DNA of 64,000 nucleotides from Escherichia coli (GTDB lineage: Bacteria; Pseudomonadota; Gammaproteobacteria; Enterobacterales; Enterobacteriaceae): the NCBI RefSeq assembly GCF_046105845.1, contig NZ_CP151004.1. One strand, 5' to 3'. Numbering within the stretch: position 1 is the first letter of the stretch; every line of letters begins with the position of its first letter. The position numbers were made by a program. Below, piece after piece: positions 39,001 to 42,000 of this stretch.

Positions 39001-42000
39001 AGCTCAACGACGTTGAAGATGTTCTGCCGGAGTCATTACCGCTCGGCATTCGCCAGCGGCTTTCGCTGGCGGTGGCGGTGATTCATCGCCCGGAGATGTT
39101 AATCCTCGATGAGCCTACTTCTGGTGTCGATCCGGTGGCGAGGGATATGTTCTGGCAGTTGATGGTCGATCTCTCGCGTCAGGACAAAGTGACTATCTTC
39201 ATCTCCACCCACTTTATGAACGAAGCGGAACGTTGCGACCGTATCTCACTGATGCACGCCGGAAAAGTGCTCGCCAGCGGTACACCGCAGGAGCTGGTTG
39301 AAAAACGCGGAGCCGCCAGTCTGGAAGAGGCATTTATCGCCTATTTGCAGGAGGCGGCAGGGCAGAGCAACGAAGCCGAAGCGCCGCCCGTGGTACACGA
39401 CGCCACCCACGCGCCGCGTCAGGGATTTAGTCTGCGCCGTCTGTTTAGCTACAGCCGTCGCGAAGCACTGGAACTGCGACGCGATCCGGTACGTTCGACG
39501 CTGGCGCTGATGGGAACGGTGATCCTGATGCTGATAATGGGTTACGGCATCAGTATGGATGTGGAAAACCTGCGCTTTGCGGTGCTCGACCGTGACCAGA
39601 CCGTCAGTAGCCAGGCGTGGACGCTCAATCTCTCCGGTTCCCGTTACTTTATCGAACAGCCGCCGCTCACCAGTTATGACGAGCTTGATCGTCGGATGCG
39701 TGCGGGCGATATCACGGTGGCGATTGAGATCCCTCCCAATTTCGGGCGCGATATCGCGCGTGGTACGCCTGTGGAACTCGGTGTCTGGATCGACGGTGCG
39801 ATGCCCAGTCGTGCCGAAACGGTAAAAGGTTACGTGCAGGCTATGCACCAGAGCTGGCTACAGGATGTGGCGAGCCGACAATCCACACCCTCCAGCCAAA
39901 GCGGGCTGATGAACATTGAGACGCGCTATCGCTATAACCCGGACGTAAAAAGCCTGCCAGCGATTGTTCCGGCGGTGATCCCGCTTCTGCTGATGATGAT
40001 CCCGTCAATGCTAAGCGCCCTTAGCGTGGTGCGGGAAAAAGAGTTGGGGTCGATTATCAACCTTTACGTGACTCCCACCACCCGTAGCGAATTTTTGCTT
40101 GGCAAACAGCTACCGTACATCGCGCTGGGGATGCTGAACTTTTTCCTGCTCTGCGGCCTGTCGGTTTTTGTGTTTGGCGTACCGCATAAAGGCAGTTTCC
40201 TGACGCTCACTCTGGCGGCGCTGCTGTATATCATCATCGCCACCGGAATGGGGCTGCTGATCTCCACCTTTATGAAAAGCCAGATTGCCGCCATTTTCGG
40301 AACGGCGATTATCACGTTGATCCCGGCGACACAGTTTTCCGGGATGATCGATCCGGTAGCTTCGCTGGAAGGTCCAGGACGTTGGATCGGCGAGGTTTAC
40401 CCGACCAGTCATTTTCTGACTATCGCCCGCGGGACGTTCTCGAAAGCGCTGGATCTGACTGATTTGTGGCAACTTTTTATCCCGCTGCTGATAGCCATAC
40501 CGCTGGTGATGGGCTTAAGCATCCTGCTGCTGAAAAAACAGGAGGGATGATGCGCCATTTACGCAATATTTTTAATCTGGGTATCAAAGAGTTGCGCAGT
40601 CTGCTCGGTGATAAAGCGATGCTGACATTGATTGTCTTCTCGTTTACGGTGTCGGTGTATTCGTCAGCGACCGTCACGCCAGGATCATTGAACCTCGCGC
40701 CGATCGCCATTGCCGATATGGATCAATCGCAGTTATCGAGCCGGATCGTTAACAGCTTCTATCGCCCGTGGTTTTTGCCACCGGAGATGATCACCGCCGA
40801 TGAGATGGATGCCGGACTGGACGCCGGACGCTATACCTTCGCGATAAATATTCCGCCTAATTTTCAGCGTGATGTCCTCGCCGGACGCCAGCCGGATATT
40901 CAGGTAAACGTCGATGCCACGCGCATGAGCCAGGCATTTACCGGCAATGGGTATATCCAGAATATTATCAACGGTGAAGTGAACAGCTTTGTCGCGCGCT
41001 ACCGTGATAACAGCGAACCGTTGGTATCGCTGGAAACCCGGATGCGCTTTAACCCGAACCTTGATCCCGCGTGGTTTGGCGGGGTGATGGCGATCATCAA
41101 CAACATTACCATGCTGGCGATTGTGTTGACCGGATCGGCACTGATCCGCGAGCGTGAACACGGCACGGTGGAACACTTACTGGTGATGCCGATAACGCCG
41201 TTTGAGATCATGATGGCGAAGGTCTGGTCGATGGGGCTGGTGGTGCTGGTGGTGTCGGGATTATCGCTGGTGCTGATGGTGAAAGGCGTGCTGGGCGTAC
41301 CGATTGAAGGCTCGATCCCGCTGTTTATGCTGGGCGTGGCGCTCAGTCTGTTTGCCACCACGTCAATCGGCATTTTTATGGGGACGATAGCGCGTTCAAT
41401 GCCGCAACTGGGGCTGCTGGTGATTCTGGTGCTGCTGCCGCTGCAAATGCTTTCCGGTGGATCCACGCCGCGCGAAAGTATGCCGCAGACGGTGCAGGAC
41501 ATTATGCTGACCATGCCGACGACACACTTTGTCAGCCTCGCGCAGGCCATTCTCTACCGTGGTGCCGGATTCGAAATCATCTGGCCGCAGTTCCTGACGC
41601 TGATGGCAATTGGCGGCGCGTTTTTCACCATCGCGCTGCTGCGATTCAGGAAGACGATTGGGACAATGGCGTAAGGAAGCGAAACTTGACTTCATATTGT
41701 GATGTCATACTATTGATGTCATAAAGTGAAGTCATAAGGACATGCCATGAGAACCCAGGTACAGGCTTTACGGAAGAAACAAAAAACACATTGGATCAAA
41801 TACTTAAATCTCCTGTTCCTCAAGGGATTAAGTGGTCTGATATAGAGTCACTGGTTAAAGCATTAGGCGGAGAAATTAAGGAAGGAAGAGGTTCGCGTTG
41901 TAAGTTCATACTAAATATGAGCGTTGCGTGTTTCCATCGGCCTCATCCGTCGCCAGATACCGATAAAGGCGCTGTAGAAAGCGTGCGTGACTGGTTACTA

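Follow-up and report, generated by a model that had tools for sequence, protein, structure and literature searches.

We analysed a 64,000-nucleotide stretch of the Escherichia coli contig NZ_CP151004.1 (assembly GCF_046105845.1; hereafter the window) and describe an element of about 50 bp in which four short repeats, here called boxes, are interleaved with a promoter ahead of a hicAB toxin-antitoxin (TA) operon. Upstream of the boxes lie rbbA and yhhJ, with the yhhJ stop codon at 41674, and downstream lie two overlapping genes which Pfam identifies as a HicA/HicB pair. The operon is toxin-first and bicistronic, hicA being followed by hicB with a 4-bp GTGA overlap, and has one promoter upstream and one terminator-like element downstream. 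The Prokaryotic Genome Annotation Pipeline (PGAP) names the homologous pair HicA family toxin and HicB family antitoxin, and on the strength of domain matches and the modelled fold the locus is assigned to the HicAB family. The features, all on the plus strand, are as follows.

41686-41691, plus strand: -35 hexamer TTGACT, inside box 1 (direct reading and promoter scan)
41687-41694, plus strand: box 1, TGACTTCA, the cross-genus consensus, overlapping the -35 hexamer; counterpart of the box at about -59 elsewhere
41700-41707, plus strand: box 2, TGATGTCA, in the promoter spacer, its trailing TA starting the -10 hexamer (pattern match)
41708-41713, plus strand: -10 hexamer TACTAT, 16 nt past the -35 hexamer (promoter scan)
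41714-41721, plus strand: box 3, TGATGTCA, directly after the -10 hexamer and over the predicted transcription start; counterpart of the box at about -32
41727-41734, plus strand: box 4, TGAAGTCA, the consensus inverted, in the predicted 5' untranslated region (UTR); counterpart of the box at about -19
41736-41740, plus strand: Shine-Dalgarno sequence AAGGA, 6 nt ahead of the hicA ATG (direct reading)
41747-42021, plus strand: hicA toxin gene, frameshifted (list of open reading frames, Pfam and alignment to intact 91-aa alleles)
42018-42377, plus strand: hicB antitoxin gene, 119 aa, with a GTG start overlapping the hicA stop by 4 bp (Pfam and model)
42380-42414, plus strand: hairpin and U-rich tract, terminator-like, closing the operon (RNA fold -21 kcal/mol, z = -5.06)

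Read directly, TTGACT (41686-41691) is followed after a 16-nt spacer by TACTAT (41708-41713), and four plus-strand copies of TGANNTCATA begin at 41687, 41700, 41714 and 41727, in each case exactly where the initial annotation had placed them. A promoter consensus scan also calls TTGACT-16 nt-TACTAT as a promoter of sigma-70 type with 9 of 12 matches; the hexamers, a spacer in the 16-18 nt class and a position conserved across loci are all those of a sigma-70 promoter, from which transcription is predicted to start at about 41719-41721. The two inner repeats are identical, as claimed, with TGATGTCATA present at both 41700 and 41714, and boxes 2 and 3 thus form an exact 10-bp duplication. The outer two had been described as mutual reverse complements, which is true of their 8-bp cores (TGACTTCA and TGAAGTCA) but not of the full 10-mers (TGACTTCATA at 41687 and TGAAGTCATA at 41727). 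Similarly, the proposed 10-bp repeat unit describes this window, but the unit conserved across species is the 8-mer. The repeats had further been called phased. Successive copies are spaced by 13, 14 and 13 bp, a period that forms a fixed lattice but does not match the 10.5-bp helical repeat; a 13-bp step corresponds to about 1.25 helical turns and leaves neighbouring boxes facing about 96 degrees apart, so that "phased" can only mean a fixed lattice and not one face of the helix. A repeat search of the region also returned a 24-nt two-box unit repeated 27 bp apart with 79% identity and a 21-nt imperfect inverted repeat, 76% complementary, with its dyad within the -10 hexamer. Tandem Repeats Finder reported no array in the region, the period being too irregular or the array too short.

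These four are the only matches to TGANNTCATA on either strand of the entire window. Their number alone is unremarkable, as four matches were reached in 13 of 100 shuffles; however, at the background rate derived from the shuffles only about 1e-9 same-strand clusters of four within 50 bp would be expected per window. The 110 bp upstream of hicA contain four TGANNTCA boxes, compared with a mean of 0.09 and a maximum of 2 in dinucleotide shuffles. Together, the cluster expectation and the shuffle statistics rule out a chance occurrence of the cluster.

More relevant to the function of the boxes, we compared the locus across genera. A scan of one genome per species found 26 loci with HicB relatives, and eight further look-ups gave seven extra loci. 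For enrichment, we took one representative per genus from 13 non-Escherichia genera and compared the 110 bp upstream of hicA with dinucleotide-preserving shuffles. These regions harbor 38 TGANNTCA boxes against 0.94 +/- 0.94 in the shuffles (maximum 5 in 2,000), and the strict motif TGACTTCA/TGAAGTCA occurs 30 times against 0.11. Further, in 12 non-Escherichia loci from seven genera, TGANNTCA is 84 times as dense in the 115 bp ahead of hicA as in the rest of the locus, a ratio that rises to 215-fold for TGACTTCA/TGAAGTCA. Among 42 boxes in 14 genera, 32 are TGACTTCA in either orientation, four are the perfect palindrome TGACGTCA (for instance in loci L021 and L022 at about 1137-1157) and four are TGACATCA, which is the inner-box form of E. 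coli (TGATGTCA) on the opposite strand. The trailing TA is a weak preference, with T in 22 and A in 23 of the 42 sites. Adjacent spacings are exactly 13 bp in 15 of 28 cases and 26-27 bp in a further eight.

The boxes also keep their places relative to the promoter. Of 14 scanned loci, 12 from nine genera have TTGAC(T/G/C) inside a box, at about -58 to -62 relative to the hicA ATG, and most genera other than Escherichia have a -10-like hexamer (TAAAAT, AATAAT, TAGTAT or TAGCAT) at about -36 to -40. The box at about -32, which every genus of a 12-sequence alignment has, begins on the last base of the -10 hexamer or just after it, and the box at about -19 always lies 13 bp past the one at -32. 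Invariant columns in this alignment occur only in the -35 box, including the -35 hexamer, and in the two downstream boxes; the spacer between -35 and -10 and the flanks are variable, and in the alignment and the scanned loci the -10 is merely hexamer-like. In many genera an extra box precedes the -35 box by 13 bp. This far-upstream box is missing from Escherichia, Citrobacter sedlakii and Enterobacter, which have a spacer box in its place, full only in E. coli and degenerate in C. sedlakii (TGCTGTCA) and Enterobacter (GCTATCA). Both box orientations are in use across genera and therefore fit a reader with two-fold symmetry such as a ribbon-helix-helix (RHH) dimer. As judged from these alignments, boxes and hexamers are under strong purifying selection across genera and are co-inherited with their cognate HicB.

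The link to HicB is also evident from loci in which one part of the system differs. HicB relatives of 28-60% identity whose strands read GRFNLRISPE, GSFNVRIPSE or GKFQVRLSPE have no box cluster upstream. A Pasteurellaceae locus whose HicB is 54% identical and keeps KTFTLRY has TTGACTTCA-N5-TGAAGTTA upstream. In Buttiauxella gaviniae (L023, 1370-1470), hicA is down to a few codons and four boxes are kept ahead of hicB; this locus is an antitoxin-only derivative, and because the boxes are kept despite the loss of hicA, the element is tied to hicB rather than to hicA.

The predicted reader of the boxes is the 119-aa protein, which the initial annotation had taken for an RHH antitoxin. Pfam, the homologue alignment, an AlphaFold2 model and Foldseek together agree with this, giving it a HicB-like N-domain and an Arc-like ribbon-helix-helix C-terminus. 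Pfam HicB (PF05534) matches residues 60-112 with 57.6 bits against a cut-off of 21. Across 40 homologues of 54-83% identity, the beta-strand K79-T80-F81-T82-L83-R84-Y85-P86 is invariant or nearly so, and KTFTLRYP aligns with PQFNLRWP of Arc, the sole suggestive match in a PDB sequence search. That search found no real relative of HicB or HicA (phmmer returned nothing for HicB at E <= 1). Because no solved structure is related by sequence, we examined the fold through an AlphaFold2 model built from the 40-homologue alignment (predicted local distance difference test score, pLDDT, 87.6) and Foldseek. The model has four N-terminal strands, a long helix, an extended segment and helices at 87-99 and 104-117. 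Its N-domain has the HicB fold, matching 6G26_B, 4P78_A, 6U0I and 6HPB with probabilities of 0.94-1.00 and E-values of 0.012-0.16, and the top matches for the whole protein are Burkholderia pseudomallei HicB (6G26) and Yersinia pestis HicB3 (4P78), both with probability 1.00, and E. coli K-12 HicB. The C-terminus matches Arc (1B28) with a probability of 0.92 and a target TM-score of 0.67, and AtaR (6GTS) with a probability of 0.96 and a root-mean-square deviation of 1.7 A over 43 residues. Arc contacts DNA via Q9, N11 and R13, and T80, T82 and R84 of HicB would correspond to these DNA-reading residues, placing the beta-ribbon in the major groove. That the HicB C-terminus is an RHH domain can thus be held with moderate confidence, as a model-based assignment that is well supported but not proven; it falls short of proof because the Foldseek E-values are weak, as expected for a small two-domain monomer.

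What the initial annotation called a HicA-like gene does carry a HicA domain (HicA_toxin, PF07927; 38 bits against a gathering cut-off of 27, E = 1.8e-9), but its reading frame is broken in this window. Alignment to intact 91-aa alleles shows that the A run at 41781-41786 is A6 here and A7 in most strains. A6 breaks the 91-aa open reading frame (ORF) and the window therefore holds no intact toxin; the ATG ORF of hicA ends at 41845 and the HicA domain is borne by a 76-aa ORF with a TTG start (41791-42021). The N-terminal segment removed by the frameshift, ALRKKQKNTLDQIFK, is conserved across genera, and we therefore regard the 91-aa HicA as the functional form. Within the 4-box lineage of E. 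coli carriers A6 is rare, being seen in 1 of the 60 best matches with intact A7 in the other 59. Two other E. coli strains share the A6 allele, which PGAP labels a "frameshifted" pseudogene; in a third strain hicA has a different 2-bp deletion and is again called a pseudogene. A -1 slip on CAA-AAA-A would bring back precisely the full-length HicA; programmed -1 frameshifting at the A6 run is unlikely, given that there is no canonical X_XXY_YYZ heptamer in the zero frame and that A7 alleles dominate.

A second group of alleles has three boxes and is found in 787 complete E. coli genomes at an identity of at least 99%, for example in E. coli YD786 (L002, 1590-1640). It differs by an exact 14-bp deletion of one repeat unit (TGATGTCATACTAT), equivalent to 41700-41713 of the window; the box lost is box 2 or box 3, which are identical. 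The deletion creates a new, correctly spaced -10 hexamer (TAAAGT), with the promoter shifted by 14 bp. In the allele of these 787 genomes the second hicA codon is TAA, and PGAP then has HicA begin at a CTG, for a product of 76 aa. Strain B25FEP (L034) and Escherichia sp. E1V33 (L006) combine the 14-bp deletion with an intact hicA. The same HicB accession, WP_000593555.1, is shared across these E. coli alleles. In E. coli the system seems to be evolving, with hicA knocked out independently at least three times and hicB left intact.

Given these observations, we propose that the 50-bp element combines the sigma-70 promoter of a mobile hicAB cassette with an interleaved operator for the cassette's own antitoxin, and from the sequence comparisons we would put the probability of this at roughly 0.8. 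An autoregulatory operator is what the initial annotation had suggested, and the proposal is well supported because of the comparative evidence, which is the main and decisive part of the case: boxes and hexamers keep their positions upstream of hicA in 14 genera while spacers and flanks vary, boxes are absent where HicB has other strands and kept where hicA is gone, and there is precedent in characterised RHH-type HicBs. RHH-type HicBs form tetramers exposing two RHH dimers, and in Y. pestis and B. pseudomallei such a HicB represses its own promoter from an operator that overlaps the -10 (PMC11594946). The HicB of Streptococcus pneumoniae binds promoter DNA through its C-terminal RHH domain (PMC6159526). 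In the proposed mechanism, each box, a near-palindrome (TGACTTCA is one base off the perfect palindrome TGACGTCA), would be bound by one RHH dimer contributed by two HicB C-termini. As in operators of the RHH class, the boxes overlap the promoter: box 1 covers the -35, box 2 fills the spacer into the -10, box 3 lies over the predicted start and box 4 in the predicted 5' UTR. As the boxes blanket the -35, spacer, start and early leader, their occupancy would shut out RNA polymerase and repress hicAB by classical steric autorepression. On the model of other HicAB systems, the boxes would be bound by HicB or HicAB, and a surplus of HicA toxin would free HicB from the DNA, de-repressing the operon. 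For the cooperative binding that the initial annotation suggested, the sole hint is the fixed 13-bp spacing, which may reflect dimer-dimer contacts.

Several points weigh against this proposal. No boxes accompany the orphan hicB genes of Pantoea varia (L024) and Dickeya (L035); Dickeya also lacks the promoter and the 5' part of hicA, of which the 3' end remains. Boxes 2 and 3 of E. coli (TGATGTCA) deviate from the consensus, and box 2 is a full box in E. coli only. RHH dimers are spaced by 8 bp in MetJ and by about 11 bp in Arc, and a 13-bp spacing is unusual for adjacent dimers of this class. On the protein side, the Pfam Arc-like match scores 16.2 bits and lies under its cut-off of 20.4, the best Foldseek E-value is 0.012, and the monomer model of HicB has no paired beta-strand. 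Finally, we found no binding, footprinting, reporter or transcription-start data for the locus in the searchable literature.

A bolder version, in which HicB uses a novel binding mode, is speculative and we consider it unlikely. Here the RHH dimers of a tetramer might bridge boxes 26-27 or 40 bp apart, with the promoter wrapped or looped, and HicB might be retained as a stand-alone repressor or alongside a toxin switched by its A-tract; the latter ideas are suggested by the repeated loss of hicA with hicB intact.

It is less likely still that the boxes form a real cis-element with a different reader, either the HicA-HicB complex only or a host transcription factor present throughout the Enterobacterales. 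A candidate for the host factor was MetJ, as the core GACGTC resembles its met-box AGACGTCT. However, MetJ requires directly abutting 8-bp boxes and those described here are 13 bp apart; as the boxes do not abut, MetJ was ruled out as the binder. In favour of the complex, TA complexes match or surpass the lone antitoxin in operator binding in several systems (PMC11594946), and S. pneumoniae HicBA binds slightly better than HicB (PMC6159526). Against both readers, the boxes accompany the cassette into unrelated contexts, one of them a Pasteurellaceae genome, remain in loci whose hicA is deleted or a pseudogene, and are lacking upstream of HicBs with other beta-strands.

We regard it as very improbable that the repeats are reiterated promoter elements, for instance stacked -35-like TTGACT sequences or alternative promoters. 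Box 1 does contain the -35 hexamer, and the 3-box allele acquires TAAAGT at the right distance as a new -10, which arises because of the repeat structure. Yet boxes 3 and 4 come after the -10, and no hexamer that could serve as their own -10 precedes the ATG, the inverted TGAAGTCA substitutes freely for the direct box in a way that a -35 element could not tolerate, and the conserved unit is the symmetric TGA..TCA and not TTGACA. Least credible of all is a functionless relic of tandem duplication, in spite of the exact 10-bp duplication of boxes 2 and 3 and a unit number of 4 or 3 among E. coli, or an RNA-level element of the hicA leader, in which box 4 would be transcribed, as 14 genera conserve both the sequence of the boxes and their position, with diverging spacers, most boxes lie upstream of the predicted transcription start, an Rfam search at a permissive threshold gave no match, and the leader folds no better than shuffles (z = -1.04), an unremarkable result for which the RNA reading was dropped.

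Among characterised systems, HicA3-HicB3 of Y. pestis is comparable to the autoregulated hicAB operon proposed here in having a toxin-first operon, an RHH-type HicB, a single upstream promoter and repeated sites, and HicB3 shares the N-domain fold (4P78_A, Foldseek probability 1.00). HicB3 represses PhicA3 via two 15-bp inverted repeats, BS1 and BS2, of which the main one overlaps the -10 (Bibi-Triki et al. 2014, per review PMC11594946). Going by the review description, the two differ in that the Y. pestis promoter is flanked by two 15-bp inverted repeats, whereas here three to five 8-bp boxes stand on a 13-bp lattice. An operator of the Y. pestis type is absent from our locus, where the sole longer symmetry is the 21-nt imperfect inverted repeat. 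HicB3 is not detectably related by sequence to the HicB studied here, and hicA3 and hicB3 are 174 bp apart whereas hicA and hicB here overlap by 4 bp. The best whole-protein structural match is B. pseudomallei HicAB (Winter et al. 2018; PDB 6G26, 6G1N), with 132 aligned columns and a probability of 1.00, at about 10% sequence identity in the structural alignment. The B. pseudomallei HicB binds a palindrome over the predicted -10, and HicA binding rearranges HicB and frees the DNA (PMC11594946); in contrast to the array of several boxes here, that operator is reported as a single palindromic region.

Two classical RHH repressors are also informative. With phage P22 Arc (and Mnt) the protein shares the RHH beta-strand, PQFNLRWP in Arc and KTFTLRYP here. 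The Arc operator is 21 bp long and is bound by two dimers, and a pair of boxes here spans 8+5+8 = 21 bp, equal to that length. Arc differs in being a free-standing repressor of 53 aa; the centres of its half-sites are about 11 bp apart, and its operator sequence is unrelated. MetJ reads an 8-bp near-palindromic met-box, AGACGTCT, with one RHH dimer, and the met-box is reiterated 2 to 5 times; it has the same GACGTC core as the palindromic HicB box TGACGTCA. Met-boxes abut at an 8-bp period and MetJ uses S-adenosylmethionine as co-repressor, whereas the period here is 13 bp and the predicted reader is an antitoxin. Among the 42 boxes, the asymmetric TGACTTCA is far commoner than the met-box-like TGACGTCA (32 versus 4). 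By analogy, the operation of the element may be likened in general terms to operators of the Arc, MetJ and RelB type. E. coli K-12 HicAB (ydcQ/hicB locus; Turnbull and Gerdes 2017; Manav et al. 2019) belongs to the same TA family and species and is likewise autoregulated by HicB. The K-12 HicB has a helix-turn-helix (HTH) domain, and its operon has two promoters and the operator hicO (PMC11594946). Identity with K-12 HicAB was ruled out, as that HicB is HTH-type, its locus is different and the yhhJ-side cassette is absent from K-12-like genomes.

In the searchable literature, which leaves many subscription papers outside its scope, we found no paper on this cassette, the TGACTTCA box, a yhhJ-side HicA or a second E. 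coli hicAB. An operator of this kind is unsurprising and the general principles of TA regulation are unchanged by it; the motif definition and the lattice are well-supported and useful additions. They give an uncharacterised subfamily of RHH-type HicAB systems an operator specific enough to test, defined by the consensus TGACTTCA, the 13-bp spacing and the box positions relative to the -35, -10 and start. This subfamily is widespread in the Enterobacterales and distinct from the "E. coli HicAB" that has been studied, whose HicB is HTH-type. The natural 4-box and 3-box alleles and the recurrent toxin-null alleles are ready variants for relating operator architecture to TA autoregulation.

Strains differ in whether they carry the cassette, an insertion that begins immediately behind the yhhJ stop (41675-42388 of the window). 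About 2,070 of 5,426 complete E. coli genomes (~38%) have it, always chromosomal and after yhhJ, and its carriers include O157:H7 and extraintestinal pathogenic E. coli (ExPEC) strains. E. coli genomes without hicAB, K-12-like ones included, match the window only as far as the yhhJ stop, so the boxes belong to the cassette and not to the core genome. A simple terminator scan made no call at the hairpin at 42380-42414, which lies between hicB and a convergent aldolase gene and is probably a bidirectional terminator. The downstream neighbour varies: in the window it is a class II aldolase with HPr and an FGGY kinase, and in other strains nikR-nikE. Over 41600-42450 (851 bp), the best identity of a complete genome to the window is at most 99.1%.

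Outside E. coli, the flanking genes of the cassette differ from genus to genus. The Erwinia pyrifoliae cassette (L036, 1-358) adjoins a phage gpA-type replication gene, that of a Yersinia sp. (L037) lies between a Tc-toxin/RHS gene and a ParE toxin gene, and in Xenorhabdus a fumarate reductase gene is a neighbour; by their gene content, the Erwinia and Yersinia settings look mobile or defence-island-like. Besides those of P. varia and Dickeya, further copies of the cassette are decayed. A truncated hicB is fused to a remnant box in Cedecea (L026), and in GCA_000307305 (L041) hicA contains in-frame stops with the boxes still upstream. In Serratia silvae (L017, 1207-1830), the hicA stop is lost and the frame continues into hicB as one ORF, which could be a natural toxin-antitoxin fusion or an assembly error.

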